A stretch of 64,000 nucleotides of DNA from a virus, in the IMG/VR virus record IMGVR_UViG_3300025128_000015, positions 125,595 through 189,594 of that record, one strand, 5' to 3'. Of the stretch, positions 7,874 through 57,700 are shown one piece after another. The first letter of the stretch is position 1. Each line of letters starts with the position of its first letter. The notes beneath the pieces are model-generated. The model worked only from the letters and a program-made list of their open reading frames with translations, made no database searches and was not told where the DNA came from. The position numbers and the translations under genes were made by a program.

Positions 7874-8332
7874 ATGAAATTATTAATTGAAAATTGGCGC
7901 AAGTTTTTAAATGAAAAAAAGATAGTAATAAAAATTAAAAAAGCCGATGGGCAAGAAATGGATTGCCCTGCTGCAACACAAGACGTAGACCTAAATACTA
8001 AAAATAGAAACGCTACAAGAAAAAACCATATGTATGGACCTTTGAACGTTAACGAGCCTGGCGATTACTGGCAAAAGCTGTCAGAAAAGTGGGACACAAC
8101 TGAAGAGGCGGCCAAAAAGTCTACATGTGGTGTTTGTGTGGCTTTCGATATATCTCCTAGAATGGACGAATGCATGCCAGGACCTGTATCAGATGAATCA
8201 GGTCGTCTAGGATATTGTTGGATGCACCATTTCAAATGTCACTCTGCAAGATCTTGCGATACTTGGGCCATGGGAGGTCCAATAAAAGAAGATTCTAAAT
8301 CTATGGAATGGCAAGAAAAAAATAAAAAATGA
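7874..8332 (+). CDS. Cys-rich putative metal-binding protein with MKLLIENWRKFLNE leader
   Basis: 7 Cys: CPAAT, CGVC, ECM, GYCW, KCH, SCDTW; SD AAGGA upstream. Confidence 0.6.
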   Translation: MKLLIENWRKFLNEKKIVIKIKKADGQEMDCPAATQDVDLNTKNRNATRKNHMYGPLNVNEPGDYWQKLSEKWDTTEEAAKKSTCGVCVAFDISPRMDECMPGPVSDESGRLGYCWMHHFKCHSARSCDTWAMGGPIKEDSKSMEWQEKNKK

Positions 8333-8568: not shown

Positions 8569-9003
8569 ATGAATATAATGAAAAGTATTACATTTGCAGT
8601 AATTTCCTTATGTATTATTACAACCTGCACCACTTCCGAGTGGAAGCCAACTACTTTTTATACACAAGATAATCTTCAATCAACAACATCAGTCAAGGGT
8701 GAACACATTGTGGTTATTTATACTACAAACTGGTGCCACTGGTGCAAAGTTGCTAAAAAATGGATGAGTAAACAAAATATTACATATATTGAACAAGATT
8801 TAGAAAAGCCTTCTGTCCAGAAAAAATTGAAAAATTTCGCTGATAGTATTGGCTATAAAGAAAGATTGAATTCCGTGCCTATATTTGCTATTAATAAAAA
8901 AATATATATAGGGTATAATCCTGAACAAATACTAAAGGCTATCGGCCGAAAAAAAACTAGCGTCAAATTATATACGACGTGGGAAACTCCCTTAAAACAA
9001 TAA
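8569..9003 (+). CDS. Glutaredoxin/NrdH-like redoxin with signal or lipoprotein peptide
   Basis: YTTNWCHWCKVAKKWM, SVPIFAIN, IGYNPE; hydrophobic N-terminus ending ITTC. Confidence 0.75.
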   Translation: MNIMKSITFAVISLCIITTCTTSEWKPTTFYTQDNLQSTTSVKGEHIVVIYTTNWCHWCKVAKKWMSKQNITYIEQDLEKPSVQKKLKNFADSIGYKERLNSVPIFAINKKIYIGYNPEQILKAIGRKKTSVKLYTTWETPLKQ

Positions 9004-9012
9004 AGGTTATAA

Positions 9013-9606
9013 ATGCTAATAACAATATTGATCAGTTCACTATTTGTTACCGCCACCACAGACGAATTGCAGATAAAATATTCTGAAGTGGTGCATCAGG
9101 CAATTAATAACTGTCCTGGTTTATCCGCAGACAAAGTAAACGAAAAATTAATTTGGGATTTGGCTAGGATAGAAAATAAATATAATCCTCCAGAATCACT
9201 AAGAGGAATGCTTCTGGCCGCGGCCTGCCAAGAATCAAAATATAATCCCAATGCCAAGGGTGATAGAAAGTTCAGCAAACGCCGCCGCCCCAAAGCAATT
9301 GGAATCCTACAATTCTGGCCATGGGCTAAAAAGTATATTGATAGAAAAGATCCTCACCAGTCTGCAGATTTTTGGATGAAAAGGATTGTCAAACAACTAG
9401 ATACATCTGTCAAACGAAATTGTAAATTTCGAAATAAAAGACGAAGATGGATTGCTGCATGGGTTACGGCAATCCGATATCCTAAAAAAGGCGGGAGGTG
9501 TTACGAAAAACCAAAACACTATTATCTTCTTAAGAAATGGTATCGTAACATAAAGAAACAAAATGAGTATAGGCGATCTTGTAAAAGACACACAGTCGGA
9601 AGATAA
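9013..9606 (+). CDS. Lytic transglycosylase (SLT/lysozyme-like) with signal peptide
   Basis: LLAAACQESKYNPNAKGD (catalytic Glu in ES) and AIGILQF; hydrophobic N-terminus MLITILISSLFVTA. Confidence 0.72.
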   Translation: MLITILISSLFVTATTDELQIKYSEVVHQAINNCPGLSADKVNEKLIWDLARIENKYNPPESLRGMLLAAACQESKYNPNAKGDRKFSKRRRPKAIGILQFWPWAKKYIDRKDPHQSADFWMKRIVKQLDTSVKRNCKFRNKRRRWIAAWVTAIRYPKKGGRCYEKPKHYYLLKKWYRNIKKQNEYRRSCKRHTVGR

Positions 9607-9754
9607 TTTAGGTATTATTATCGACATTCTTGAAAATAAAATCAAATCTGGTAACGTTTATAAGAGTTATATGATTCACTGGTTTAAAACTGGATTCAAA
9701 TCAACACACGGAACAACGCAACTAATTCTAATAAATAAACATTTTACTAACTAA
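9563..9754 (+). CDS. Small hypothetical protein (KOW/SH3-like start)
   Basis: MSIGDLVK...LGIIIDI pattern; fills the gap between neighbours. Confidence 0.5.
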   Translation: MSIGDLVKDTQSEDNLGIIIDILENKIKSGNVYKSYMIHWFKTGFKSTHGTTQLILINKHFTN

Positions 9755-9774
9755 AAAGACTATTTATATTTGTC

Positions 9775-12700
9775 ATGACAATGAAACATCTACTAGAAAG
9801 TTGGAGATCTTACGAGCGTAAGGTTTTGACCGAAGAAAAAGAGCCTCTCGACGAGATCTCATATAATTATGCAGAAGAGGTTGAGAACTGGCTAGCTGAT
9901 AACGGCGATCAAGTTGCTCTTCCGTTTAATGATCTATTTGACGATAAACTTCGTAAAGTTATTCCTTTAGGAAAGGCGATTGCGCCTAATTCTGAAATTG
10001 CATCTTTAATCAATTGGTTTAAAAGAAATGGCTATGAGCTTGATTTTAAAACCGGCTTGGCATCAAAAGAAGTTGAAGATCGCCAAGGAAATAAAAGATT
10101 AAAGCAGATGAAACCTGGCAAATTATTAGCTCAGGCTCAAAAATATCTCACCAAATATGATAAATTATATGGTGAAATGAATGATATTGTTGTAGGTTTA
10201 GGTTATAAAGTTGATTATCGCGAACATGAACCCTGGCAAAAGAAAAGAGCAGAAAGAATGGATCATCTAGAAAGGGCAGAGCGGGTTTTTCCTGCAATCT
10301 CTCGTGATGTGACACAGACTGTACAAAATCATATACAATTTTGGAACAAGAAGTCTCAATTCTATCGTGAAAACCCAGAAAAAGCATTTATAGAATATTC
10401 AATTATTCTTTCCCGTGCGCCAATCGATGTTTTAAGAATGTCAGATCATAAAAATATTAGGTCATGCCACTCAGAAGGAAGTGATTATTTTAAGTGCGCA
10501 AGAGCAGAAGCGCAAGGACACGGACCAATTGCATATGCTGTTGAAACAAGAGATTTAGAAGATATTGATTTAGATGACGATGAAGTATTTGAAGATCGTG
10601 AGAGGGGAATTGGTGGAATTGAACCTGTTTCTCGTGTACGATTGAGAAGATTTACATCAAGAGAAACAACTTTAGATTTAGCAGTACCAGAGCAAAGAAC
10701 TTATGGCACAAGCATTCCCGGCTTTGTAAAGAAAGTAACAGACTGGGCTAGAGAATCACAAAAACCTGTTTGGGAAGATTTCATAGATGAGAATTCTGGA
10801 AAAATAGATCCAGAGTTTCATGGTATGTTTTTTAGAACGGGTGGATCTTATACAGATACATCTTCTTCGTCCTTATTCAATAAAATGTTCGAAGATTATG
10901 GAGCAAGCTTTCATGGATCAGCTCCACACCGAGGAAGTGAAGAAGAATTTGAAGACGGTGGAGACGAATATGAACAAGACTATGAGCGATTCCACGAAGA
11001 ACTTCGAGATATAAATGTTGCAATAGATGATGCAGAATATAATGTATCTCGCTTTAGAGATGTCGGACCAACCGGTGAATCAGGATTTCAGTTTAGCGCA
11101 GAAATCGATAACGATGAATGGCAAGAAATGGGCGATGAGGTGAGCGCATATTGGAACGGCTCAATGACTTTTACATTTATAGAAGGCGAAGAAAGCTTGC
11201 CATCTCATCATAAAGAACAACAGGATATTGCTGACGAAATTCAAAAATTAATAGCGAGTGAAGTACATTTGGGCATAATGGAAACCCAAATCGACGATGT
11301 TGGAAACACCATAGAAGTAAGAGTGGAATTTGAAACGTACAACGACGGAGTATACTCCATCGCAGAACAAATTCGCTCATTTGTTGAAGATATGGAATCG
11401 ACTTCCGAAGAATACAATGATATGAAAGCCATGATATATACCCATCTTGCAAAAAGTGGTTATGTTAATCCAACTGCAGCAGCAACTTTAACTAATAAAT
11501 TAGCTGCAGGCGAACTAGAATTCAAACATTTCGAGTTAACTCACGACAACGAAGGACATTATATTACTCTTAAAGTTGACGACGAAGACGAAGCCACAGG
11601 AGTTGATTTTCCTAAGAGAGTCGACACCTACAGAGCCCCAAAAACAACTGTCGGTCCTATTAGAAATCGCTTGTTAGAATTAATGAGAGAAGGATATGGC
11701 GGAGCAAGAGGATTATCTGCAACATCTAGCAATCGATATGGATTAGTACAATCGAAACAATTCACAAGACAAGTTTTAGATCTGTTAACTCCAGAAATTG
11801 CCGCAATAGTTAAAGCCAACGCAGATCAACAGAAGCTAGACCTGCAAGAAAACAGCTCTATAACGCCTCAAGCAATAGAAGCCCACCTCTTACAAGGATT
11901 TGTCCTAAAACTGCGTGAAATACAGCGTAGAGAGCCGATGAAGGGACATGGACGAAGGAAGGATGAAGTTCCTGGTAAAACTCCAATATATGTTGACGTA
12001 GAAGAAATGCATTATTCTTTGGATGATGAAGATGAATTTGAAATAGTCGAACCTATTATTGCTTTCTTTGTTCACTTAGATAAGAATATTGACAAGTTAT
12101 TTAAGGCCATTACCGATGTACTTCAAACATTGGATGTTCAATATGGCAATAAAACAGTAGAAGGACAAAGCCAAATTAACGATATCGTACAAATGGCTGA
12201 TGACGTAGCTGAATTTGTAAAAGAAAAGACTGGTGGCGGAGTTATATATGGAGACTCCAGAGACGTCTCATCACCAAAAACTTATCGTGAAAAATTACTT
12301 CAGGGACTAAAAAGAGCAAATTACGTTCTTGCTAAATTAACATCTCCAGGAGATCAATCATATATTTCAATGTTTACAGGTATTGAAACTCAATATCCTT
12401 TAAGAATGAATGATTCAGAAAGATTCATAAAGATTATTACCATGTTGCAACGCGATCATGCCGAAATGAATATATATTGGAAAAAGTTGACACCAGAAGA
12501 TCTCGACAAGTCTTTAGAGCAAGAAGAAGAACCACATAAACCAGCAGATGATAGAGATGATGGTTGGCAACCAGGAATGCCAGTGACAGAATCGTTGGCT
12601 AATAAATTAAGAAGTTATTTGGGTGAGCAGAAAAAAATCAAATTAAAAGATGTTCCCCGCGTCAAACACATTCCAAAAGCATCGTATGGACTGCCCGTCA

Positions 12701-14712
12701 AAGGAATAGGATCTCTAATTAAAGTTCTTGGTCGAAAAACAAAACAAGATGCTCTCGCCGCCACCAACAGGATAGGTGATCTGGTTAACGCGGTGGTCGA
12801 CGAACCGCTTGAAAAAGCGATAACAGATAAAGAAAAAATTAACCCAGCCCACGACACCGGTAAAGCTGCAGCACAATTTGCTCAAAAAGCAATGACTAAG
12901 AAAGCAGCTAGTGATCGTCGTAAGAAATATAAGCATGCTCTTCCAAAAATATTTAAAGAAGAATCACTATCTGAAAAATTAACAAAGTACTTGGATGAGA
13001 ATCTTAAATTGAAAAAAAGAACACCAAGTCGACCGATCGGCTCGCCAAATCTTAAAGATATTGATAGAGCATCCAATCTTGAACGATTTGATAAACACAA
13101 TATGAAAAATTATGATGAAGAAGGATATTATATTGGACGCCCACTCACAGCCAAAGGCGCCCAGCCCTCATTCGGTGACAATATTGAAGATTTACCTTCA
13201 AAATTTACCCAAAATTTTAGCAGACTTTTGAGAAGTAAAAGTCCCAAAAGAAGAGATAAAATTACAAACTATCTGCCAGATTTTGAAATTGGTACTGGAG
13301 ACATATCCTTAGCGCCTAATTTAAAGTTTTATGCTACGGCACGCACCAATTGGGATGAAAGAAGACCAGAAGGACGTTTGAGCAAAAATATGAAATTCGT
13401 GGATGACCCCGGAGATACAAATAAAATTTATGATGATGAAGGATATCATATTGGTTATGAGGATGATGTCAAATCCCAACCACTCGTACCTAGAGCACAA
13501 CCAAAGATAAGCGGACGTCCATACGGACATTACGCCGGCGTTGGGTTAAAAGGAACGTTTGAAGAAAACAACAATCCAGAAGAATCACTATCTGAAAAAT
13601 TAACAAAGTACTTGGATGAAAATGACAAACCAGATTATCAAGCAGCTATAAAGAAAGCGAAAGAACATGAAAAATTAATTAACCCACAAAAAGTTAAAAG
13701 AGAAAAGAAAAAGAAAACTCAGACTAAAAAGGCTAGAGAAACTTATAAACGTTTGAGAAAGTATTTGGAAGAACAATCGCCAACACAAAAAAAAACTAAA
13801 GATGCAACTGGAAAGATATCTAAATCATATGATTCTGGACCAGACGCTTATCGTTGGAAAGAATTATTCAAACGCAAAGGTTTAGATCCATCAAAAGGAT
13901 CTGAGGTTTCTAAAAAAATTGGAAGTCAATTAAAAGGAGTGAAAGCTGTAGAAGCTCCAGCAACAAAAGGAGTTGATTCCGGTGTTGCCCGAGCATTCTA
14001 CGATCCGAAAAAACCTAAACAGATACAATATTTTAAAGGAGCGGATCCAAAAAAATCAACTGTTCGACATGAATTAGGACATGTAGTTTCGAAGTTGGCT
14101 TCTAAAGAGAAACCAGTATCTGATTTAGTTAGAGGAGATAAATCTGCTAAGAAACTGCGAACACAAGAACCAAAAAGATATTCCCGCGGCACTCCATCAG
14201 AACGGATAGGTACGTTAGAACCAGATGCAATGTTACCTTCTCAATTGTACGGTGGAGAAGGAGGAGAATACGAAAAGATTTTTCGATTCCAACACAGACC
14301 TGATGTTAAAATTGGTCGTAGACTCGACCGCGGCCTCGGTAAAGTTGGTTCTAGGACCCAAGCTAGAAAAGGTTATGTAGCAGACGAATTATATGCGCCA
14401 ATCAAAAACACACAATGGTCAATTCAAGATGCGGCCAAAAACAATCCGAAAAAAGGATATATGGATGGAAATCGAATCACTCCAGCTGCTGTGAGTGCTA
14501 TATGTAGCGGAGAAATCAAAGTTTCTTCTAAAGTTCGAAATAATGTTCGAGGATGTAACGAAAGAGATCCTGAAAAAAGAAAGCAAATTTTTCAAGGTGT
14601 ATCCGATGCTCTCAATAGAGTCGCGAAAGGACCACAAAAACGCCAACAAAGAAAAATGGTTGCAGAATCACTATCTGAAAAATTAACAAGGTTTTTGGAT
14701 GAAAATAACTAA
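9775..14712 (+). CDS. 1645-aa modular protein: acidic N-terminal region plus C-terminal repeat-delimited cassettes, one with HExxH
   Basis: Leader MKHLLESWRSYERKVLTE; repeats ESLANKLRSYLGE, EESLSEKLTKYLDE x2, ETYKRLRKYLEE, ESLSEKLTRFLDE; HELGH at 14068-14082. Confidence 0.8.
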   Translation: MTMKHLLESWRSYERKVLTEEKEPLDEISYNYAEEVENWLADNGDQVALPFNDLFDDKLRKVIPLGKAIAPNSEIASLINWFKRNGYELDFKTGLASKEVEDRQGNKRLKQMKPGKLLAQAQKYLTKYDKLYGEMNDIVVGLGYKVDYREHEPWQKKRAERMDHLERAERVFPAISRDVTQTVQNHIQFWNKKSQFYRENPEKAFIEYSIILSRAPIDVLRMSDHKNIRSCHSEGSDYFKCARAEAQGHGPIAYAVETRDLEDIDLDDDEVFEDRERGIGGIEPVSRVRLRRFTSRETTLDLAVPEQRTYGTSIPGFVKKVTDWARESQKPVWEDFIDENSGKIDPEFHGMFFRTGGSYTDTSSSSLFNKMFEDYGASFHGSAPHRGSEEEFEDGGDEYEQDYERFHEELRDINVAIDDAEYNVSRFRDVGPTGESGFQFSAEIDNDEWQEMGDEVSAYWNGSMTFTFIEGEESLPSHHKEQQDIADEIQKLIASEVHLGIMETQIDDVGNTIEVRVEFETYNDGVYSIAEQIRSFVEDMESTSEEYNDMKAMIYTHLAKSGYVNPTAAATLTNKLAAGELEFKHFELTHDNEGHYITLKVDDEDEATGVDFPKRVDTYRAPKTTVGPIRNRLLELMREGYGGARGLSATSSNRYGLVQSKQFTRQVLDLLTPEIAAIVKANADQQKLDLQENSSITPQAIEAHLLQGFVLKLREIQRREPMKGHGRRKDEVPGKTPIYVDVEEMHYSLDDEDEFEIVEPIIAFFVHLDKNIDKLFKAITDVLQTLDVQYGNKTVEGQSQINDIVQMADDVAEFVKEKTGGGVIYGDSRDVSSPKTYREKLLQGLKRANYVLAKLTSPGDQSYISMFTGIETQYPLRMNDSERFIKIITMLQRDHAEMNIYWKKLTPEDLDKSLEQEEEPHKPADDRDDGWQPGMPVTESLANKLRSYLGEQKKIKLKDVPRVKHIPKASYGLPVKGIGSLIKVLGRKTKQDALAATNRIGDLVNAVVDEPLEKAITDKEKINPAHDTGKAAAQFAQKAMTKKAASDRRKKYKHALPKIFKEESLSEKLTKYLDENLKLKKRTPSRPIGSPNLKDIDRASNLERFDKHNMKNYDEEGYYIGRPLTAKGAQPSFGDNIEDLPSKFTQNFSRLLRSKSPKRRDKITNYLPDFEIGTGDISLAPNLKFYATARTNWDERRPEGRLSKNMKFVDDPGDTNKIYDDEGYHIGYEDDVKSQPLVPRAQPKISGRPYGHYAGVGLKGTFEENNNPEESLSEKLTKYLDENDKPDYQAAIKKAKEHEKLINPQKVKREKKKKTQTKKARETYKRLRKYLEEQSPTQKKTKDATGKISKSYDSGPDAYRWKELFKRKGLDPSKGSEVSKKIGSQLKGVKAVEAPATKGVDSGVARAFYDPKKPKQIQYFKGADPKKSTVRHELGHVVSKLASKEKPVSDLVRGDKSAKKLRTQEPKRYSRGTPSERIGTLEPDAMLPSQLYGGEGGEYEKIFRFQHRPDVKIGRRLDRGLGKVGSRTQARKGYVADELYAPIKNTQWSIQDAAKNNPKKGYMDGNRITPAAVSAICSGEIKVSSKVRNNVRGCNERDPEKRKQIFQGVSDALNRVAKGPQKRQQRKMVAESLSEKLTRFLDENN
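12957..12998 (+). repeat. 42-bp direct repeat, copy 1
   Basis: agaagaatcactatctgaaaaattaacaaagtacttggatga, identical to 13578-13619. Confidence 0.95.
13578..13619 (+). repeat. 42-bp direct repeat, copy 2
   Basis: Identical to 12957-12998. Confidence 0.95.
14664..14706 (+). repeat. Direct repeat, copy 3, at the ORF's C-terminus
   Basis: First 26 nt (agaatcactatctgaaaaattaacaa) identical to copies 1 and 2, then ggtttttggatgaaaat versus agtacttggatgaaaat in copy 2. Confidence 0.9.
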
Positions 14713-15190
14713 TCCTCGTTTAAAGAAAGCTGTAACTTTTGTAAAAGACTATCGTGAACTATTTTATATGTATATCATATATGCGGTCGCGCTAACAATC
14801 ATATTTTCACAAACCAATTGCACACCTAGTAAATTAAAATACAAATCATTAATAAAGAACGGAAAAGTGTACGTGACCATACGAGTCACATTATACACAA
14901 CACCTGAATGTTATTATTGTGATGTGGCTAGGGATTTTCTCAAAAGAAATCAAATAAGATTTATCGAAAAGAACTTCGAAGACCCTAAAGATCTTCAAGA
15001 ATTATATAATATTGCAGATAAGATTAACTTCAATAAGAAAAATCTAGACGGAGTACCAACTTTTGTATTTGAATCAAGAGAAGGTGTTAATATTATCGTA
15101 GGATACAGTCGAGCAGAATTGTTGTGGATTTTAAAAAAGAAAGCATCATTAAAGAAAACTTTTTTAAGAAAAAAGACATTTTTTGATTGA
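14699..15190 (+). CDS. Glutaredoxin-like redoxin with N-terminal membrane/lipoprotein segment (paralogue of 8569..9003)
   Basis: LYTTPECYYCDVARDFL, GVPTFVF, VGYS; hydrophobic YMYIIYAVALTIIFSQTNC. Confidence 0.75.
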   Translation: MKITNPRLKKAVTFVKDYRELFYMYIIYAVALTIIFSQTNCTPSKLKYKSLIKNGKVYVTIRVTLYTTPECYYCDVARDFLKRNQIRFIEKNFEDPKDLQELYNIADKINFNKKNLDGVPTFVFESREGVNIIVGYSRAELLWILKKKASLKKTFLRKKTFFD

Positions 15191-15960: not shown

Positions 15961-16209
15961 ATGAGCGCAGTATCAATATTAAATGCAGTTAGACAAAGAT
16001 TTAAAGCCGAAGAATCAACGGCCGCAGCAACACTTGAATTATACGTTAATAAAGCTGCAGCAATTGCTGATCACTCTGATATAATCGGTGAAGTGGAAAA
16101 ACAGATTCGAGTATTGACAGAAGCACGCGAATGCCTAGCTGTAATTGAATCTGTGATGCCTAGCACAGCCCCACAAACGATTAATAACTCTACAGAAGGT
16201 GAAGCTTAG
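15961..16209 (+). CDS. Hypothetical helical protein
   Basis: Helical ORF (…IADHSDIIGEVEKQIRVL…) directly after the previous gene. Confidence 0.55.
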   Translation: MSAVSILNAVRQRFKAEESTAAATLELYVNKAAAIADHSDIIGEVEKQIRVLTEARECLAVIESVMPSTAPQTINNSTEGEA

Positions 16210-16942
16210 GGTCCTCGCCATTATCGCTTACAACGTCTGTTAAGAATATTTTTAGTTGTTCGTGTGTGGCTGAGAAAGAAACGTGGTGAAAGTTTCTGTG
16301 AACTGAGTGTACCATCCCAACTAACTCTCCGCTAGAATTTACTATGGGTGAACCGGAAGAGCCTGGATATACAGGAATTGTATAGAGAGCATATACTCCG
16401 TAAAATACACCCGCATATTTGCCTTCAAACAAAGGTACTACGCCAGGATTAAATACTCCTGCAGGCGCCGCAAAGTTGAAATACTTTTTGTTTTTTTCTG
16501 GAGGGCCGGAAGATAAATGAAGAACTGGTATAGATAATTTCTTTTCTTTGCCTTTTAGCAAGCAAATATCAGCTTCTGCATTCTGTTTTACAACTTCTAA
16601 GATATGTCTTTCACCACTTACATCAACTGCACTTATTTTTATTTCTGGCTTATATCCAAGCTGTATCGCTGGATTAACAACATCAGAATAATCACAAACA
16701 TGATTTGCGGTCAGAATATGAACTTGGCCTCTGTATAATACTCCCGCCCCAGATGCAACAGAACCAGCATTTAATTTTTGGTCTATACCATCGACAGAAC
16801 GAACCAGTGATATCATTACATCCATTTTTACAAAAGTGTTCTTTACTTTTGCAGGATTTGATAGTACATTGTTATGAGCACATGAACTAATGGTTAAGAT
16901 TAAAATTGTTAGTAAACAAACTTTCAATGTTTTCAAAATCAT
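16190..16942 (-). CDS. Trypsin-like serine protease, probable lipoprotein
   Basis: Catalytic triad motifs ILTANHV, ADICLL, PGSSGSP; N-terminal LLTILILTISSC lipobox-like segment. Confidence 0.85.
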   Translation of the reverse strand: MILKTLKVCLLTILILTISSCAHNNVLSNPAKVKNTFVKMDVMISLVRSVDGIDQKLNAGSVASGAGVLYRGQVHILTANHVCDYSDVVNPAIQLGYKPEIKISAVDVSGERHILEVVKQNAEADICLLKGKEKKLSIPVLHLSSGPPEKNKKYFNFAAPAGVFNPGVVPLFEGKYAGVFYGVYALYTIPVYPGSSGSPIVNSSGELVGMVHSVHRNFHHVSFSATHEQLKIFLTDVVSDNGEDPKLHLL

Positions 16943-39014: not shown

Positions 39015-42000
39015 ATGGCAAACCAAAAAAAATATGAAGTTAGTACCTTATTTAGGGTAACAGAAAGTTCGGCTAAACTAGCGCAAGACGATGACGTCAA
39101 CTGGCCAGGCGTTCCATTCCGTGCTTTCCAGTTGGCTGTCGAAGTAAATAATCCAGTTTATGATCCGGGAACTTACGCGGTCTTAACAAACTTAGACGGA
39201 GCCATCAGAGATTATCTCCTCCCCGGTGCCGTCGTAAAATTTATATCAAATATAGCAACAGTAGATCTGGCTGGAAATCTAAGAATTGATGAAGAATATG
39301 TTCTTGTTAGATTAATTTATGCACGATCAGCAGAAGAGCATATTGTTGCTGGTACAGGAGAGGTTGTATATCCTGAAATACAAACTGGAAAACAAGGATT
39401 TGACGAATTCGCATTCGTAAACGATTATGTTGGGTTAATAAAAAGAAAATATTTAGAAAGCTTTATTATGGATCCATCCTCGATCTATAACGAACTACAG
39501 AAGGCTGTTCAAAAAGAAGAGACAGCTAAAAAGATATCTAAGGTTTTGCTTGAAAAGCCGACCTATACACTAAAAAATCTTAAAGGCTTTTGGTGGCTTC
39601 CAATTACAAAAGAACAAAAACATAGAAACAAATCTGCTTTTAATAGAAATAATTTAGTGAGCCAGTTTCCAGAACAAGGAATTGTTTGGGATTCGACTAA
39701 GACGTACAAAGTAAAAATAATGGAGTACGCAACTTATAATGACGACACAGCTGCTTGCGGCGATAGTCCTTCCTCTAGGTGCCCTCTGGCACTTGTCGCT
39801 GTTATTGATGCTGATAATCCACATAATTTTGCACATAACTGGGCCAACACTGATGATCAGTCAACTCACTTACCGCAAGAAGGAAATGCTGGAGATAAAG
39901 TTACTCCATATGCTAAGTGGGGTTACGTACATTACTCATTTTTAAAAGCGGCCATCGATGCGACAGGGGATTTAGATATCCCCAATGATCCTCCTGCTTC
40001 ATCACCAACAACTCCTTCTTCCGATCCAAACTCGCCTCCAGACGTTGGAACCGTAGAATCAGCTAGTGATTTTATAAGAGATGAAAAAAAATGTAAATAT
40101 TTTGTAAATATAAGAGCAAGATATAAAGGAACTATTGAGCAGTTAAAAAACGATAATCAATTTAACGTAGCTGTAAAGATGGAAGCTTTTTCTAAGTTGT
40201 TGCAAAATTACAGCAAAATTGCAGCTTTCGATCGATTTGTTTGGATGAATAAAGGCTCAGGAAGTACTTTATATGGTGAAAAAGAAAAGAAAATTTTAAA
40301 TCAGACTTATTCTAAGATTCAAATCGTCGATACAAAGAAAGTTGGATCTAATGGAGAATATATTATATCCATTTCTGTCCCTGCCGCTTTGTTTGATCAA
40401 ATCCCTGATGGGCCATCTTTAAAACCTTATGTCTCACAAAACGCTTCTGATAAAAGATGCACATTGTTTATTAAGAAAGAGGGTGCCTCGTTTGAAGATA
40501 TTATCACTAGTGGTAAAGATCCCGGAAATTATATTACTTTAAGATTTTCTTTGAGTGATGTTGAAGAGTTGGGAGATACATTTGTTAATGTTTTCCATAG
40601 AAGATACGTTTCAGAATATAAAAAGTATGTTGATCTTCTTTATGCTGATTTTCAAATGGAATCAGATTATTTACTAAGATTTATAAGTGGACTTAGAAAG
40701 TTAGCCAAAGATAATAATTTAGATATTATTTCTTCGCCTACAAAACACGCTCATTTCGATATTATATTTGATCAAAACTTTCTTATTAAAGATGTAATCT
40801 ATAATAAAAGCACTCCATTCGAAGGTGAATATTATCAATTTAAAGTTGGTGCTGAAGGATTTAAATCTAAAAATAATAATAAGTCAACAAATAAATTGAT
40901 TCATGATTTATGCAGTTCATCAGCTCTTAACGATTCATCTCGACCCAAACCAGAAGGATCAAATGCAGAAAAAGCATCAATAGCAGCAGATACAAGAACA
41001 CGCTTTCTTAATCATATGCAAATTTTGCACCGAACCTGGTCTCGGCCACCTTCAAGCGAGTGTTTAGCAAGATATTCAGGCAAAGACACATTCGACGCAG
41101 TTCCTATTGTATTTAACAACAATGATTTCTTTAATCAATTTTACAATAATCCAAAACCTAAAGTAAAGATGAAGACAAAGCCTTCTACTCCAAGAAGCAA
41201 TGAAAACTTTACAGAGATCGCGACTTTCCGTGTTGGACCAAAATCTCCTGCTGATCGAGCAAAAGAAGATCGATCTATTAATGCGATGGTGCAGAGAGAA
41301 GGAAAAGAATTAAAGAAGACTAGTGGTTCAATATTCTCTGAAGAAACTAACAAATATGTTGGAGACCTTGTTAAATCAAAAAGTGTCTTTACAATGATCT
41401 TGAGGTCGGAAACATTTTTTGGACCAAAAGGATTATATCAGCAACTCCTGAACAAAACAAATTTAAATGTTTGGCTTAAAAGTGTTTTAGAGTGTGCTGG
41501 ATATGATTTAAAAGGCGATGACATGTTTGAGGTCTTGTGTAATATTGTTCTTAAAAATCTTCCGTGGGATAAAATCAGAGATGAAGTATTGATGAATCTT
41601 AACGAAGCAACCGGTGAAGTGACCGACTGGACAACAAAAGCGCTTGAAGATATCTATGCAGAAATGTCGACTGAAGACTTTGATTTAAATAAGGCTACAG
41701 CCGGCTTAGGCGACGTTCTTCGCTTTGCAGATCCAAAATGGTACCCTGGGTTCGATCAGACAACAAAACTCGCTAATTCACTGAATGTGGGCAATACACC
41801 TGTTTCAACTCCCGAATCAGGACAAACACTTGGCGGTTCTGCTCCACCACTTAAATGCGATGATTTAGATGATGATTTGGTATTATCTATGATACCAGGC
41901 GCCGCCTTGGATTCAAATGCAACAGAAGACAACGTACCATATTTAGCCACACCGAATGATGCCGCGGCCAATTCAAAAGTATATTCTTCAGGAGATGCAG

Positions 42001-45000
42001 TATACAAATGGAAAGTATTTTTAAATTACAAACTCAGTACAGCGCCCTCTTATGTTGTAACAGAAACAATAAAATATGCTTTTACAGAAGAAGAATTTGT
42101 TAAAAATGGCTCTTCTTTCAATGAGAAAACAAAATTAGCTACACAAGAATATACTCGACAATATCGATGGTCTGTTTTCGAATCCGGAACAAAAGACGCG
42201 CTAGGTATACAAGGAATTGTTTCGCTAGAAGCTTTCCGAGAAGCCACAAAGTGGTGGGCATTAACGCCTAGAGCAGAACGCGACAAGTATGTTTCAAATA
42301 TCGTTCCTGGCACGATTGAATCAACTAGTAGGATAACAGTTGACAACTTAGAAAAATTGTTAGGAGAGATGCCGATTAAATTTGCTGTATCTCCAGCAAC
42401 AGTGACACAGCTTTTTAACAATCACTATCTTGTTATTAAGAGAATTATTTCACAGCGAGAAATATCTGGTACACCAACAATCACTGGAATGGTTACTTTA
42501 TCCTTAGCTTCTAAATCTAGTATGATACCATCAGTCAATTCATCAAATATTATCATGGCCGAGTTGATGATGGCACCGGTCGCCAATGCACAAGAAGCAA
42601 TATATTCAAAAATAAATGATTTCGTTGGAGTTCTTAAACCAAATTTAGAAGACGCCTTAAACCGATTCGGCATTGTTGATTATTCTATTGAAGAACTTAC
42701 AGAAAGCGAATCGATGAATCCAACAGATTTTGATCAAATGGTAGAGGACACCAATCAAGAAACTGGAGAAATAGTACAATATCAGTCGTTTTTATCACAA
42801 CCTCAAGTACCAACCGACTTTCAAAGTTTTAAAACTCAATTAGATGGATATATTTCTGCTGGAGCTTTCTCTAAAGAAGGTCAAATTAGACTTGTTAATA
42901 ATTTAGTAAACAATTATAACTTAGAAATATCAGCTTTAGTAACTGCGCATTGTAATCCTGAATTTCTGTGTAAGCACTTAGAAAAATATATATTAGATTT
43001 GATGGCGTTTTTTGATACTGGTGATTTATCAAAAATTGGATTGGGTAAAGTATCTGACTTCTTTAAGAACTTCAATATTGAAGATTTCTTGGGCAACATA
43101 GGAAAATTGTGGGTTGCTGCTATTTTAAAACAAATAGATCAATCTCTTTTGATGTCGTTTAAATGGTTAGCTAGATATATTCAATTAAATTGTGAGCTTA
43201 TGATGTCTGAGGCTGGTAAAGCTATCATGGAAGAGGTAAACAAATTAGATGATGGATTCGCTAAAGATGCATCAAAATTTGGTCTGGGTCTCTTTAATTT
43301 AGATACGGAACCAGATCCTGAAGAGGCGGAAAATATAATACAGATTGTATTCCCGGCCCAAGCGATCGGGGATCCCTCTGTTGACGAAAATGATTATGAG
43401 TTTCAAGGAGTTGACAAATTTAGAGTTGATGACGACAAATACGATAAAATTGATGTTAATAAAACAAAAATGTTGAGAGAAGCAAGAAAGTTTATTGAAA
43501 TCATTACGCCAAAAGATAAACAAGTTATTGAACAGGCACTTCAAGAAATTCAATCCTTCTTATATAGAATACTTTTAAGTCATAGTTCTAAAAAACTAGT
43601 TGCTCTCTTTTCTGGTAATGCAAATTCTGCATTGCTTGAAGAAATGTTACTTCTCATACAAAATAAATACCCCTCTTTAAACAAGGTTTTAGATTCAGTT
43701 TCGGCAATTAATTCTTTCTTTAACTTTGTTGGAGCGTCTGTTGATTTAGAATTATTTATAAACTCGGTTGTATCTAGAAAAATTATAGAAGATTCTTGTG
43801 AAATCAAAGAACTATCTGAAGACTTGCAAGTTTTATCTTCAAAAGCAATTCTAGCTTTAGAGGAACAAAATAGAATTAGAAATCAATACATATCTAAAAT
43901 AGCTGATATGGCTATTGATAATGGCGCCCTGTCTGGAGTGCCAAATACTCTTAGCGTTGATCACGATCTTGTCGCATATCCGGATAGTATTCCATTTTTA
44001 GATAATGCTATGGCCACTGCAAGAGATACTATTATGGATTCTATAGAAGAATCATACCGCTCCGACATCCGAAATATCAGATCAATATTTATGAAATTTG
44101 ATATTTCTTTGAAAAATGAAGAAACTGGAGATGTCTTTGATGGATTTAGTGAACTAGCTGGTAGTCTTGCTGCAAATGGAGACTCTGCCGCCGATGTGTT
44201 CGATTCTTATTTGAATGCTTTGGCTGATTATACAAAAGGTGATAGTGAAGTCGTTCAGTTTGGGAACGATAACTATAAAATAGAGATGGGATTTGAAGAA
44301 GAACTTTATCCAGAATTACAAGATTCTCTTCGTGGTAAGAAAGAATTCTTCATAGATAGAGTATATAAAATCGCAGCAGTCAATGGACCTAATTCACCAA
44401 ATGAACAGAGATTAGACATATTTCCGTTTTTAGATTATCTTCCAGAAGAATTTGAAAAATTCTATAATTCTTTCATTGAGCCAAAAGAAAACAATGCAGG
44501 AATTGCTGTTAAACCAAATGCTAATTTTGCATTTGTTATGGGAATCAACACTCAAAACACATTACAGATGAATGAGTATGAATCCGGCTTGGCGACAATA
44601 AATTATGATACTTATGTTGTTTTGGATCCATTTAAAAATCATGCGACAATGACGTCTGTTGTAGCCAATACTGCCGATGGAAAATACACCACTGCAGTTA
44701 TTAATAACGAAAATGTTATGTTTTCGTGGCAATCCGGAATGTATACTAATCCTGCAGAACTGTTTGGAACAGCAAAGGTAAAAACGTTTACATACGGTGA
44801 TCCTTGTTCACTAGATGATCTTACAATACCATATGAAGTATTTGAAGAGATTAATTTTAAAAACCAATCAGATGATGCATTTCCAGAAATTAAAGATCCG
44901 CTACTTGGTAATATAGCAGAAAATCTTCCTTTAGATTTGAAAGATTTTGATTCATTTACAAATACGCTTCCGCAAGCAAGAATGTTTTCGAAATATGTAA

Positions 45001-48000
45001 TGAACATATTTTACAAGAATATTTTTGAACAAAAAAGAGGTGTATACGCTTCAATGCCGGATAACCTAGCGGAGAAAGCAGAAAAGGTCAGATCAATTTT
45101 AGAAACTTATGTGTTCCCAAGAGTGACTAATAATATAATTCGTTCATTTGGAGAATACACTTCGAACTCTAGATATTTTAATACAAAAGAAGTCTATAAA
45201 TTAACAGAAACTTTGTGCGACCCATCGAAAATACCTTTTGATTTAATTGATTTAGGTAAGATCAAAGATGATCTTCTCAAAAGATATACTCAACATCGCA
45301 AGAAGCTTTTAATAGACGAACAAACAACAGAAAATTATGACGCACCCTCAAACGGCGCATTCGAATTGGCTATGATGGAGGGAGCCGTAAGGTTAATTAT
45401 TAGAACATACTTGGCTGAACTTCTTCTTAGGGCCGTCTTTCTATTCGATAGATATATATTCGCAGAAATTATGGACAATGAAATGTTCAAAGAGTTGTTT
45501 GCAAAACAGTTCTTAGCTGGACTACAAACGTATATTGGAAATCAAGATCCTGAAATCTTTAGAGCTATGTTTTTGACTGAGTGTCGCTACATTGTTAAGA
45601 CAACTTGGGATTCCACACCTTCAAACTTAAAAAAATATACAAAAAAACAAGTTTTGAATGATGAGACAACGATGATTAAGCATCTTGTTACGTTGGAAAT
45701 AAATGACATCGGCGCCAAAATAAATTCCTTGTTTAGTTTGGATAATGAAAAAATTAAACCTCTTAAGGAAATCTTCTTTGATGATCTAAAATTTGGATTC
45801 TTAAGAAACTCTGGTATTAGTTACGGCACAGATACAACACCAACAAGCTACTTTATGTTTGATTACTCAAATATATACAATGCAAAGGTTCCCGATCCAA
45901 TTGCTAAGATGTCCAAAAAAGATCAAATGACAATTGACCAAGCATCAAAACAAGGATTTGCTGAGCTACAAGAAGATTCAATATACTTTGATGTCAACGG
46001 TAATGAAATTAGCTATGAGGGACTGCCAGACGGAATATTCCCAGAAGGAATCAGTACAGAGTTTAAACTTGGATTTGGCGATTTTGTTATCGAGCCATAT
46101 GTCAGATTGGTCGATTGGGAAGTTGGCGAGAAAGAAAATATTGATGCTGAGTCTCCAAATATGAGCTTTCCCTTAACAATGTTTGATGAATCTTTTGGCG
46201 AAGGCGGACAGATAGAAAAAGATTTTGGAATTACCGGATACGTAAGAGAAGATAAATATAGGGGAATATTAGCCCTCAGAGATTTACAAGATTTTGCAAT
46301 TGATTTAATGGATCATTTAGTTGTACACGATCAAATAAATCAAGAAGAGAATCCCAATCAAGCGGGAAGTTCTTTACAAAATTTTGGAAAACACGAGCTG
46401 CCTTTATCTACCTTCTATAAAGAATTAAAGTGGGGAATTAGGCTCAATCTAATAATACCTGCAGATCCTTACTCTGGAGAAAACAAGCCTTTTGCTAAAT
46501 TAGAAGAAGTGTTTAATTCGTTTTTTAGCTCCTCGCCTTTTGAAAATCGTTGGGTACCGGGAATCCATAAATCATATCGTATTTGGCGCCAACCCAAAGA
46601 TGTAAAAGGAAAGCCAAGTGGTAAAAAAGTGCCATATTTCGTTATACCTCTAACATACGAAGAGGTTGAGGCCAATCAAGCCGGCGAAGGAAACGGATTA
46701 ATAGGCTTTGCAACAAATTTATATAATCAGAGTTTCAAAAAATTAGCAGCTATTAAGCCAAAAGATTACGACTTACAGCTAGCAAGATACATTAAATATC
46801 CATCTGACGAAGACGTATATAAAATTAAATTTAATATGGGGTACCGCGATGAAGCTTACGAATTATTTGAGGAAGGTACGACTGCTGGAGAAATTTTACC
46901 GATATTAATCCACAGTGAAGATGGCACTTCTATATCGCAAAAGAAATATTATGAAGGACCAAGCTCTGTAGAGAGAGAATTAATAAAGCATTACCATGGA
47001 AAGGATATACTTGAGGATGGCTCTATAGAACAAAAATATTTAGATCTTACGAGTGATATATCTTATGAACAAGCCTTATATGATGATTCCGGCGGTGATG
47101 GAAATTTTGCTGCTATAAAAAACATCGATAAAATCCGACAAGATGTTGAAATCACCTATAAATCATTGCTTACAACAAAATACGCCAGAAACCAATTCGC
47201 TCAATGGATGGGGATTGGTGTAGAATTAGATGAAGAGCCCTACACTAGAACACAAACAAAGATTAATAAAATTGAAAGGGACACCACAAGACCAGACTAC
47301 CACCCTTTAAAAACACCAGAATTAGTTGGACGGCCAGATTTTAATGCAAAGTTTATAATTGACTATGCCTCAAATGATGATCTTTATCCCCATGGCGCTA
47401 TTAATGATATTGGTTGTAAGAAAACTGGCTATAATATGTATCAAAAAATATTTGCTGGCAATGGCACTGGGTATCTTTCATATATAGACAACCTTGAGAC
47501 TATGTATCAGGCACCGGCCGATGATGGAATTGGTGGAGGCTACGGCAGTATAGAATATGAAGATAATGGAAAATATGATTCTCCACCTCTTTATGATACA
47601 AATTTTAGAAATATGTCAATATACAAAATGACACGTTGCCAAAAGTCGCCTTCTTGGAAGCAAGTCGGCGCCGTGTATCCAAATGGAGAACAGATTAAAA
47701 CAATATCTGAACCAAAAACGCTTAATACTACACAAACTCTCTCTCCTCTTAAAATATCAATCAATGACATCTTTCCAGCAGAAAAATATCACTGGAGTCA
47801 AGTGGTCACAGATAATCAAGAAACTTTTGTAAACTCAGTCTTGAGTGCTCTCGGCAGTTTTAATTATAGCTCTGTTGCAATAGATGAGTGTATAGATTTA
47901 CATCTACCTGGTTTTGATCCAGATAAACCGTTTGATTCAAAGCAAGAATATGAATCATGGAAGCAAAATAATGAACAAAATATTACAAACTTTTTTGAAT

Positions 48001-54766: not shown

Positions 54767-57700
54767 ATGTCTTACAATAGTTTAAAAAATTTGTTTGAGA
54801 AGGATTCGCAGAAAATAATCGCGCAGACTTCTAGTTTAGGTACGTTGGGCAATAAAACAGAGTCCGAGGGATACCTAAAGGCTTATAAAGTATACAAAGA
54901 GAGAGTAACGCCTCAAATTGATTTTTCTAAGCCTAAGAACTGGGTACGCTATGGCTCTGCAGAACAGTATTATGTCGACGCAACTGCCAATATATATGAT
55001 TCTTATCCTTATGATGGATCTGAAAAAGAAAAAATAGAGTGGCACAACAGCTCGTCGTACTTTGAAAATTATGTTTTTGAAAATGAGTATCCTAGAACAA
55101 ATGGACATATTGTTTTAAACAATATACGACCGTCTCCGGGCTCTGGAAGCTACGGTTCAGGTGGAGATCCACAATATATTCTAACAACTGGCTCAATGGC
55201 CAAAGACAATGTATATGATTTGTCTAAGAACAGAGCAGAAAATCTTTTTGTTGACCTGTCAAAAGACGGAGCAACAGTAGAATTCTGGTTAAAAAAGAAC
55301 GGATTTCTTGGCTCTCTGAAAACAAAAAGAGAAGTTATCTATGATTTATGGAATAACGAGCTAGTTTCAAGTACAGCATACGGCCGATTACGAATCGAAA
55401 TGGATTCAACAAGAGCAGACACAGTTTTTCTGCTAACAGCAGCTTCTGGCTCAGCCGGCGTAAAATTAGCCACAATTGGAACAACAGGTTCTCACGGAGC
55501 TGGTTTTACAACTTCTAAAGTTGGCGATGATAAATGGCAGCACTATGCATTCACTTTTAAGAATACTACAACAAACAATATTGAATGTGAGATGTATCAC
55601 AATGGTAAATACATAGAAACAATTGTTACTGGTTCAAACATAAATGCTATTTCCGGCGCCATATCTTGGTCACAAAATAAACCAATAGTTTCTACAATTG
55701 GTGCTCTTGCCCATAGAACTTCTTATGCCTTAGACTCGATTGCAAAATTAGGTCACGGATCTTTAAGTGCATCGATAGATGAGTTTAGATTTTGGAAAAC
55801 ACGCAGAACTGCAAAAGAAATTGGAACTAACTGGTTTGGACAAGTTGGTGGCGGGTCAAACACTGATGACGCAAACACAAAATTGGGCTTGTATTATAAG
55901 TTTAATGAAGGGATAACTACTACATCAACCATCGATGAAATCATATTAGACTATTCTGGTCGTGTATCAAATGGTAAGTTTGTTGGGTACAGCGCAGCTA
56001 GCAAACATAGAGCAACCGGATCTGCCATGTTGAATTCTGGATATGCTAAATTTGAGTTTAAAGACCCGATTATTTATGATGAACACCCAGATGTAGGCGC
56101 GTATATAGCTCAGAAAAAACTTACAGGCTCGATGTATGATGATACGAATCCTTCATACTTGTATTACACATTCCCTCAATGGGTTATTGAAGATGATGAA
56201 AAGGGACAACTTCATAAACTAACTCAGATCATGGCCAGTTATTTTGACTCTCTTCATTTGCAAATTGCTCAAATACACAAACTTAAGAGCGTCAACTATC
56301 CAAGCGGAACACAAAAGCCTTATCCGTTTATGAATCAACTTCTGCAGGATAAGGGTTTTTATATATCTGAGTTATTTAACAATTCTGATTTGATAGAGAC
56401 TTATAGTAATCAAACAGAAGATTTTGTTATCAAAGATAAGCTTCATGACATTAAGAATAGAATTTATCAAAACATATATAATAACTTGACATATATCTAC
56501 AAAACAAAAGGTACTGAGCAGTCTATTACTGCTCTCTTACGATGCCTTGGACTAGGTGATGACCTAGTAAAAGTAAATTATTATGGCAACAACAATGAAT
56601 ATCTTTTCAGAGAGAATTTTAGAAATGCAACTGTAAAGAAAAGATTCCTTAATATGTCTGATTCTAGTTTTACTGGAACTGTATATCAGAGCACGGGCTC
56701 GGGTGATTCTGTGGCATCGTCTTTTTATAATCGACTTGCAGTTTCTCATCTTCAAGGTGGAGAAAGCTTGTATGATATACCAATGACTTTGGAAACTAAT
56801 GTATTTTTTCCAAAGAACGTGGAAGGTTCAAATAATGTTAACACCGAAATGACGTCCTCTATTATTGGTATGCATACAATCGATACTTCAGGTGATTTTG
56901 GTTTGCATTCAAATACATGGTCAAAAGAGGGATTTAATACACCAGCTTCATTTGAAGATGCAGCAAATCTACACATTCTTGCTGAAAAACATCCACAATT
57001 CAAACACCATGTACGTTTTCACATATCGGGCTCTTATCGTGGAACAATTGCTATGTCCAGTTCATGGGTTAAAAACGTTTATGATAACGAACATTGGAAT
57101 TTAAGTGCCCGTATTCGTCCCAAGAATCATGAACAATTTTATACTTATACAAACTTAGGCAAGGTTGGTGCGGCCGCAACAGCTATGTATACTAGCGCCT
57201 CATACGAATTAATTTTTCATGGTGCACATGCTAATTTAGGTACAATAGAGAAAGAATTTACTTTAAGCAAGGACTTAACATTCAATCAAGCTACGGCTTT
57301 CTTAACAAGTTCTAAGAAAATTTATGTTGGTTCACACAGAATCAATTATACGGGTAGTGTTATTAATAAAAGTGACGTCGATGTAACTTCTGTAAGGTTT
57401 TGGCACAATAACTTAACTGATCAAGAACTTCAGTCTCACATAAAAGATATAACAAATTATGGTGTTGAATCGCCTTATGGCAATTCACTTATATCTCTAT
57501 CAGGAAATTCTCCTCACAATGATCAGAAATATATGAACACTTTATCAGGAGCTTACGTCCCTAACTATAAGACGCTAGCTCTTCACTGGAATTTCGAAAA
57601 TATCTCTGGTTCTGGACCGATTGGTGGTTTTGACGTCTTTGACTTTTCTTCGGCCTCAATGCCTTCACCAACCAACGCATACAACGACTTTACACCGTTT

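Follow-up and report, generated by a model that had tools for sequence, protein, structure and literature searches.

Introduction

The prohead protease gp21 of bacteriophage T4 cuts after L/I-X-E and has few other requirements (PMC9026906). The T4 internal proteins are basic and share only a 10-amino-acid (aa) capsid-targeting leader, and T4 Alt, a packaged ADP-ribosyltransferase, is cut by gp21 at both ends (PMC9026906). In phiKZ and SPN3US, the prohead protease processes head and ejection proteins by cuts at S/A-X-E or A-X-E (PMC10052503, PMC9026906). The polyvalent proteins of phages and conjugative elements are predicted to undergo packaging, delivery alongside the DNA, and, in many cases, processing; they commonly contain an HExxH module (PMC5512222). 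Here, we analyze the open reading frame (ORF) P0001 (9775..14712, + strand; 1645 aa), which encodes a conserved core and a C-terminal array of cassettes, each ending in the same short peptide (the tag). P0001 lies in a 64,000-nucleotide (nt) stretch of viral DNA (the window), bases 125595–189594 of IMG/VR record IMGVR_UViG_3300025128_000015, whose whole genome is 189.6 kb with 38% G+C. Positions are those of the window unless they are given as genome positions.

In bacteria, polymorphic toxins such as CdiA (VENN) and Rhs (PxxxxDPxGL) have a conserved N-terminal body and variable C-terminal modules that are swapped by recombination at a conserved motif, and MARTX toxins release several effectors from one chain. 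In T4-type genomes, PeSL mobile regulatory cassettes are described as intergenic promoter/stem-loop elements that mediate modular shuffling (PMC2839356). An initial annotation of the locus, made from the sequence alone, knew of no description of such an array as a system; this was too strong, as the T4 internal proteins (PMC9026906, PMC12373910) and the polyvalent proteins (PMC5512222) are close precedents.

Results

P0001 Encodes a Core Followed by Tagged Cassettes

P0001 is a polymorphic cargo array, in which a core of ~940 aa is followed by in-frame cassettes that each end in the same 13-aa tag. The conserved core (aa 1–938; 9775..12588, +) is acidic (isoelectric point, pI, 4.8) and 74–87% identical among orthologues, whereas the four cassettes are basic (51–310 aa, pI 8.6–10.1). 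The tag is amphipathic, follows the pattern ESL[SA][EN]KL[TR]xYLxE, is encoded by 39 nt, and has four true copies in P0001. These read ESLANKLRSYLGE at 12589, ESLSEKLTKYLDE at 12961 and 13582, and ESLSEKLTRFLDE at 14665, the last followed by NN and the stop codon. The gaps between them are ~111, 194, and 348 aa, and the basic modules separated by copies of one peptide are thus present as first described.

In the DNA, 46-nt direct repeats begin at 12585, 12957, 13578, and 14661. The copies at 12957 and 13578 are identical at 45 of 46 nt with a 42-nt exact run, confirming the 42-bp identity reported initially, and the terminal copy is 87% identical, with differences at 6 of the 46 positions. A strict tag motif matches five times in P0001 and nowhere else in all six frames of the 189.6-kb genome. 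A profile made from 20 tag peptides scores 16–26 bits at five places in P0001; elsewhere in the six-frame genome no place exceeds 5.5 bits, a gap that puts the repetition of the tag far beyond chance.

The core closes with its own tag, R0 (ESLANKLRSYLGE; 12589..12627, +), and DNA homology to the orthologous locus L007 (95.8% nt identity) stops at 12629. Cassette c1 (12628..12999, +; 124 aa, pI 10.0) ends in tag R1 (12961–12999). Cassette c2 (13000..13620, +; 207 aa) ends in tag R2 (13582–13620), is 32% identical to the cassette of L014, and contains an internally duplicated motif, YD[DE]EGY.IG; the duplicated stretches, 13105–13136 and 13423–13454, are 32 nt long, 91% identical, and encode the peptides MKNYDEEGYYIG and NKIYDDEGYHIG. 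Cassette c3 (13621..13773, +; 51 aa, 37% lysine plus arginine) shares homology with the second L007 cassette. The sequence that closes it, ETYKRLRKYLEE (13738–13773), had been taken for a fifth, degenerate repeat. It aligns to the L007 cassette sequence that precedes a true tag and is therefore the end of c3 and not a degenerate tag; the tag between c3 and c4 has been lost, leaving the two modules fused.

Cassette c4 (13774..14703, +; 310 aa, pI 10.1) ends in the terminal tag (14665–14703) and carries HELGH at 14068–14082. A language model (Atlas) gives a weak lead to zincin families (score 0.81); c4 has no Pfam match, and its AlphaFold2 (AF2) model has a predicted local distance difference test (pLDDT) score of 48. 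A relative with 70% identity to c4, P0017, is terminal in another lineage. The cassettes are unrelated, basic, poorly ordered modules. Neither whole P0001 nor any single cassette matches a Pfam or PHROG family above the cut-off, and exhaustive HMMER searches with aa 940–1645 returned only four fragments of orthologous arrays and no stand-alone homologue of any cassette.

Homology between Orthologous Loci Breaks at the Tags

Orthologues differ in their cassette content. Four have no cassette and carry two tags in tandem (L005, L013, P0004, and P0029); others have one cassette of 151, 192, 199, 279, or 283 aa (L008, L006, L014, P0028, and L009/L016/L017); L007 has two, and P0018 and P0031 have at least two to three. 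Every array closes with a tag plus two residues, and the flanks of loci that differ in cassette content are up to 96% identical. BLASTP with the tags trimmed gives at least 11 cassette families, the only links being those of c2 to L014 and P0018, of c3 to the second cassette of L007, and of c4 to P0017. Compared with L007 at the DNA level, the window is 95.8% identical over 9000–12629, unrelated beyond that except for c3, and 89.6% identical again from 14664. The tags themselves are the breakpoints where DNA homology stops and restarts. The initial proposal that cassettes are added, lost, or swapped by recombination is thus borne out by the aligned orthologous loci, which hold differing sets and break exactly at the tags, and it is very probably at the tag DNA that related phages gain, lose, and exchange cassettes by homologous recombination.

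The tag DNA falls into two classes, R0 (the core's own; TCG TTG GCT AAT..., then Q) and R (TCA CTA TCT GAA..., then N). Rare codons are fixed in the tags, with the Leu codon CTA in 12 of 12 copies (14% usage in the core) and the Arg codon AGG in 10 of 10 (7% usage). Tag DNA is 86–91% identical even to that of the L009 lineage, whose core is only 68–73% identical. This conservation of codons and DNA points to concerted evolution or exchange and not to peptide constraint alone. No RNA structure was found at the tags (z-scores 0.2 to 1.1), and a DNA-pattern scan of viral contigs returned only the two loci already known.

Cassette Bodies Are Depleted of the gp21 Cleavage Motif

All 17 of the 17 tags end in L-x-E, where x is variable (D, G, N, S), and each R tag has a second site, L-S-E. 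AF2 models place the tags in predicted helices that follow low-confidence linkers. The array of P0001 has seven (L/I)-x-E sites in total, each of them in a tag or at the end of c3. We compared the number of (L/I)-x-E sites in cassette bodies, with tags trimmed, with that in shuffled sequences (5000 shuffles). Twelve cassette bodies (1821 aa) contain a single site, against an expectation of 9.75 ± 2.9, and none of the 5000 shuffles was as low. After two new bodies were added (14 bodies, 2167 aa), the count was again 1 (expected 11.0 ± 3.1; 0 of 5000 as low), and the 11 non-redundant families (1791 aa) likewise hold one site where 7.7 are expected (P 0.002). The control tripeptides [LI]xD, [VA]xE, [LI]xK, [LI]xQ, and [FYW]xE, as well as [LI]E, are at expectation. 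Across 147 long ORFs of the genome, (L/I)-x-E is slightly more frequent than expected (observed/expected 1.23), and none of these ORFs shows significant depletion. The joints all carry the gp21 motif and the cargo avoids exactly that motif, the pattern expected from selection under an L/I-x-E protease. Neither an uncleaved protein nor a repeat that matters only as DNA would be expected to show such depletion, which argues indirectly for cleavage.

A protease of the gp21 type is encoded in the same genome. Peptidase_S77 (gp21-type prohead protease, PF03420) matches with 116.7 bits at genome 31777–32220, in a gene that spans genome 31684–32337. When its product is aligned to T4 gp21, the catalytic His and Ser blocks are kept (ELDHP and SSRGLGS), and L-T-E at its N-terminus aligns with L-I-E of T4 gp21. 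The genome also encodes a gp23-type major capsid protein with L-R-E followed by A near residue 60 (in T4, L-T-E followed by A at 65), and T4-type baseplate wedge proteins are encoded within the window. The major capsid protein is at most 52% identical to those of cultured phages, the nearest being Flavobacterium phage immuto, Microcystis phage Mel-JY01, and Rhodothermus RM378, which places the source as a distant, uncultured, T4-like (marine) myovirus. With this protease present and the cassette bodies depleted of (L/I)-x-E, the claim that the repeats are cleavage tags, as first suggested, gains indirect support from sequence.

A Possible Route from Array to Ejected Proteins

We tend to favor a reading in which the prohead protease cuts the tags and releases packaged cargo, and one gene probably supplies several proteins that are swappable between phages. 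P0001 would be loaded into the prohead, possibly via its N-terminal leader of the (L/I)-x-E-[NS]-W type. The T4 gp21-type protease would then cut each tag behind its L-x-E (L-S-E and/or Y-L-D-E). The freed cassettes, as small basic internal proteins, would leave the capsid with the DNA. In the T4 internal-protein genes, only the capsid-targeting sequence is shared; the array would be their in-frame equivalent. A broader and more tentative proposal is that the tag is dual-purpose. Its DNA would act as a portable homology arm with which far-T4 marine phages insert new cargo in frame into a protein that is already loaded, making an array that is driven by homologous recombination and shared between lineages; its peptide would act as a protease release site and possibly a loading signal, and the gene would be an expandable magazine of injected host-takeover or anti-defense proteins.

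Recognizable effector domains in the array and its relatives are weak signals only. They comprise a GDS motif in the L009-type cassette (SGNH/GDSL-like; Lipase_GDSL_2, E 4.6e-5, below the cut-off), the HExxH of c4, and an M23 module in the distant homologue P0010. These hints would fit proteins that act on the host at entry.

The Core, Its N-Terminal Leader, and Distant Homologues

Among orthologues, a block of the core (aa 207–371) is nearly invariant. A tblastn search against cultured phages gave no match for P0001, for this conserved core block, or for the distant homologue P0013, and a PDB profile search with the core gave none either. The AF2 model of the core has a pLDDT of 67. Searches of this model with Foldseek and VIA-align found no convincing solved fold (the top Z, 7.7, does not rise above noise) and no match to an ADP-ribosyltransferase fold; the only fold matches are uncharacterized proteins of large myoviruses, e.g., Atu_ph07 and Dickeya JA29. 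No signal peptide was found in P0001.

The N-terminal leader (MTMKHLLESWRSY...; 9775..9834, +) contains L-L-E at residues 6–8 and is of the (L/I)-x-E-[NS]-W type (MTMKHLLESW...). The six-frame genome contains the motif (L/I)-x-E-[NS]-W-[RK]-x-[FY] five times, always at ORF residues 4–12; this leader type occurs only at N-termini in the genome, and the motif is retained in the distant core homologues P0008, P0009, and P0011.

Two N-terminal leader families occur on otherwise unrelated proteins at genome 101715–118544 (locus L018) and window 7874–8332. The leader "MKITK.QLKQIIKEEL" begins ORFs at genome 101715, 107829, 109460, 110889, and 112565 (looser at 115223 and 115878). The leader "MKLL.ENW[RK]K[FY][IL]NE" is found at genome 111147, 111512, and 133468, with a weaker form at 118101 on a NUDIX hydrolase. 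In both families, (L/I)-x-E ends at residue 14 (10 of 11), and the bodies of the leader-bearing proteins are not depleted of the tripeptide (35 observed versus 22.5 expected). By sequence, these leaders resemble T4-type N-terminal propeptides. The idea that the tag is an internalized copy of the "MKLL.ENW.KF.NE" leader was dropped, as a matrix built from the leaders fails to rank the tags, and the leaders get no score from the tag profile. Because this cross-scoring failed, we retain the likeness only as a shared amphipathic (L/I)-x-E pattern.

P0010 (1732 aa) has an amphipathic repeat of its own, L[KRE]E[AS]IR.AI, at residues 697, 1156, 1182, and 1715. These repeats flank its M23 peptidoglycan peptidase module, and the last copy lies near the C-terminus, giving a parallel architecture with a different tag. 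In the orthologue P0006 (930 aa), divergence of the core sets in exactly within the first tag (…PVTES); unrelated acidic sequence follows, with no tag at the end. Either P0006 has also recombined at this joint or its contig is chimeric.

Genes around P0001

Gene order is constant in the orthologous loci: glutaredoxin, SLT-like, a 63-aa gene, the big ORF, an overlapping thioredoxin-like gene, trypsin-like, and PhoH. The overlap arises in the terminal tag, where AAGG and an ATG (14699) in another frame (14686..14701, +) provide the ribosome-binding site (RBS) and start of the downstream gene, and the same overlap is found in L005 and L007. This gene (14699..15190, +) encodes a membrane-anchored, glutaredoxin/thioredoxin-like protein of 163 aa and is syntenic in all orthologous loci. 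The variable modules are not followed by a cognate immunity gene, as the downstream gene is always this same thioredoxin-like gene, whatever the cassette content. A Trypsin_2 serine peptidase with a lipoprotein signal (16190..16942, –) is also syntenic.

The glutaredoxin/thioredoxin-like proteins (8569–9003, +, and 14699–15190, +) and Trypsin_2 (16190–16942, –) have lipoprotein-type or membrane-anchor N-termini. Judged from their sequences, the two redox proteins and Trypsin_2 look like an envelope-directed group of phage proteins with conserved synteny around the array. Two genes upstream of P0001, a 197-aa protein (9013–9606, +) has a hydrophobic N-terminal signal and an SLT lytic-transglycosylase motif, E-S...N-P-N-A...G-I-L-Q (Pfam SLT, 21.0 bits; cut-off 21.3). 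The 63-aa ORF (9563–9754, +) starts MSIGDLVKD and belongs to a family of 50–70-aa MK(V/I)GDLVK mini-genes, which form a tandem array near genome 100–105 kb (100421–105486). Elsewhere in the window, very long ORFs of 3953 aa (39015–50876, +) and 3051 aa (54767–63922, +) lie on either side of the baseplate wedge genes.

Alternative Explanations

Several observations weigh against packaging and cleavage by the prohead protease. The array gene lies ~100 kb from the head module, among exported lipoprotein and auxiliary genes, and the T4-type late promoter TATAAATA was not found upstream of it on the + strand. The core matches no known head or ejection protein in sequence or fold (Pfam, PHROG, PDB profile, Foldseek, and VIA-align) and is not itself depleted of (L/I)-x-E (10 observed versus 12.7 expected). 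Each cargo has the tag on its C-terminal side, and a tag also forms the extreme C-terminus of the protein, whereas the T4 targeting sequence is N-terminal; the tag has no detectable relation to the N-terminal leaders. Part of the nucleotide conservation of the terminal tag follows from the overlapping RBS and ATG, although the internal and R0 copies are not so explained. An invariant 13-aa peptide also far exceeds what gp21 requires, so the tag must have a further role. The array could instead stay one uncleaved, polymorphic polypeptide, as some polyvalent proteins or polymorphic toxins do, with the tag serving as an inter-module helix, a recombination joint, and perhaps a C-terminal docking helix. 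The cassette exchange shown at the tags does not require cleavage; in every case the tag also forms the extreme C-terminus, as expected of a docking peptide, and is far longer than a protease site; and some polyvalent proteins are delivered full length (PMC5512222). We nevertheless regard an uncleaved array as unlikely, since it leaves the roughly ten-fold depletion of (L/I)-x-E, with related tripeptides normal, unexplained and gives no reason for a single chain to work when its basic modules are unrelated and poorly ordered.

That another protease cuts the array, be it the HExxH of c4 acting on its own chain, the neighboring trypsin-like peptidase, or a host enzyme, seems improbable to us. 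The HELGH of c4 and its zincin lead would suit autoprocessing, which is predicted for zincin-like domains of polyvalent proteins (PMC5512222), and the Trypsin_2 gene is syntenic in all loci. However, most orthologues lack c4 yet keep their tags, c4 has no Pfam support and an unusable AF2 model, the trypsin-like protein is exported (lipoprotein signal) whereas P0001 has no signal peptide, and the depleted tripeptide is exactly that of the gp21 rule. We see a similarly small chance that the repeat is selected mainly as DNA, through a gene-end/gene-start junction that is copied inward with each insertion and encodes a functionless peptide. The terminal tag does hold the downstream gene's AAGG-N7-ATG in the window, L005, and L007, and the fixed rare codons would also fit, but the internal copies and the R0 class, with its different codons, keep the peptide pattern and the L-x-E end. 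The internal copies even weaken AAGG to AAAG with the peptide kept, no RNA structure accompanies the tags, and the depletion of (L/I)-x-E would again go unexplained. Short-k assembly could be confused by a 42-nt exact repeat, so that cassettes of several strains were chained through it. A Logan contig (another assembler, k=31-based, run SRR5467097) nevertheless reproduces window 12983–14759 at 100%, a span that takes in two tags and the next gene, and starts with a read adapter inside R1; P0001 fragments also occur on other contigs, multi-cassette arrays are found in other samples (L007, P0018, and P0031), and the terminal tag is not an exact copy of the repeat. The earlier concern that the 42-bp repeats might be spurious is thereby addressed: an assembly artifact is unlikely, and chaining of strains through the repeat is extremely so.

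Comparison with Known Systems

Should the tags be cut, in-frame cassette swaps at a standard joint, and not added genes, would be the way in which phages beyond the T-even group diversify their injected proteins. Tag-bounded modules, loss of (L/I)-x-E in the cargo, and a gp21-type protease would then give a rule for recognizing, from sequence, the injected proteins of uncultured phages. The orphan basic cassettes would, if this is true, be candidates for anti-defense or host-takeover functions, like T4 Ip1–3 (PMC12373910), and the pair of tag and protease could offer a naturally evolved template for packing several proteins into a capsid.

Like T4 IPI, IPII, and IPIII (PMC9026906, PMC3012670, PMC12373910), the array combines small, basic, unrelated cargos with a short amphipathic peptide that ends in (L/I)-x-E; the cargo repertoire differs between related phages, and a gp21-family protease is present. 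The T4 internal proteins are encoded by separate genes with an N-terminal 10-aa tag, whereas here the cargos are fused behind a 940-aa core, and the tag follows each cargo, closes the protein, and has no sequence similarity to the T4 tag. Because its tag is not an N-terminal leader on separate genes, the array falls outside the definition of the T4 internal proteins. P0001 would resemble T4 Alt as a large (injected) head protein with short terminal propeptides, and Alt shows that gp21 trims C-terminal pieces too; Alt, however, is a single enzyme without a cassette array. With the polyvalent proteins (Iyer et al. 2017, PMC5512222), P0001 shares unrelated modules in one long phage polypeptide. 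Those proteins have recognizable domains and no standard linker, whereas the modules here are mostly orphan and basic, are joined by one conserved tag, and have the prohead protease as their predicted cutter. Given the weak domain signals, P0001 cannot be classed with the polyvalent proteins by domain content.

Multiple cuts after Glu in one protein by a gp21 relative, as predicted here, are also a feature of the phiKZ and SPN3US head proteins, but those lose propeptides and have no exchangeable cargo array with a repeated tag. The locus shows none of the features of polymorphic toxins and MARTX toxins, which are secreted by bacteria and are accompanied by immunity genes or contain a cysteine protease domain. 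As with the PeSL cassettes described for T4-type phages, short conserved DNA joints flank exchangeable units; unlike in that description of intergenic elements, the joint here is coding and in frame. The locus adds clean breakpoints in near-identical genomes and a motif-depletion test, and its closest matches are the T4 internal proteins in function, the polyvalent proteins in architecture, and polymorphic C-terminal cassette exchange in evolution.

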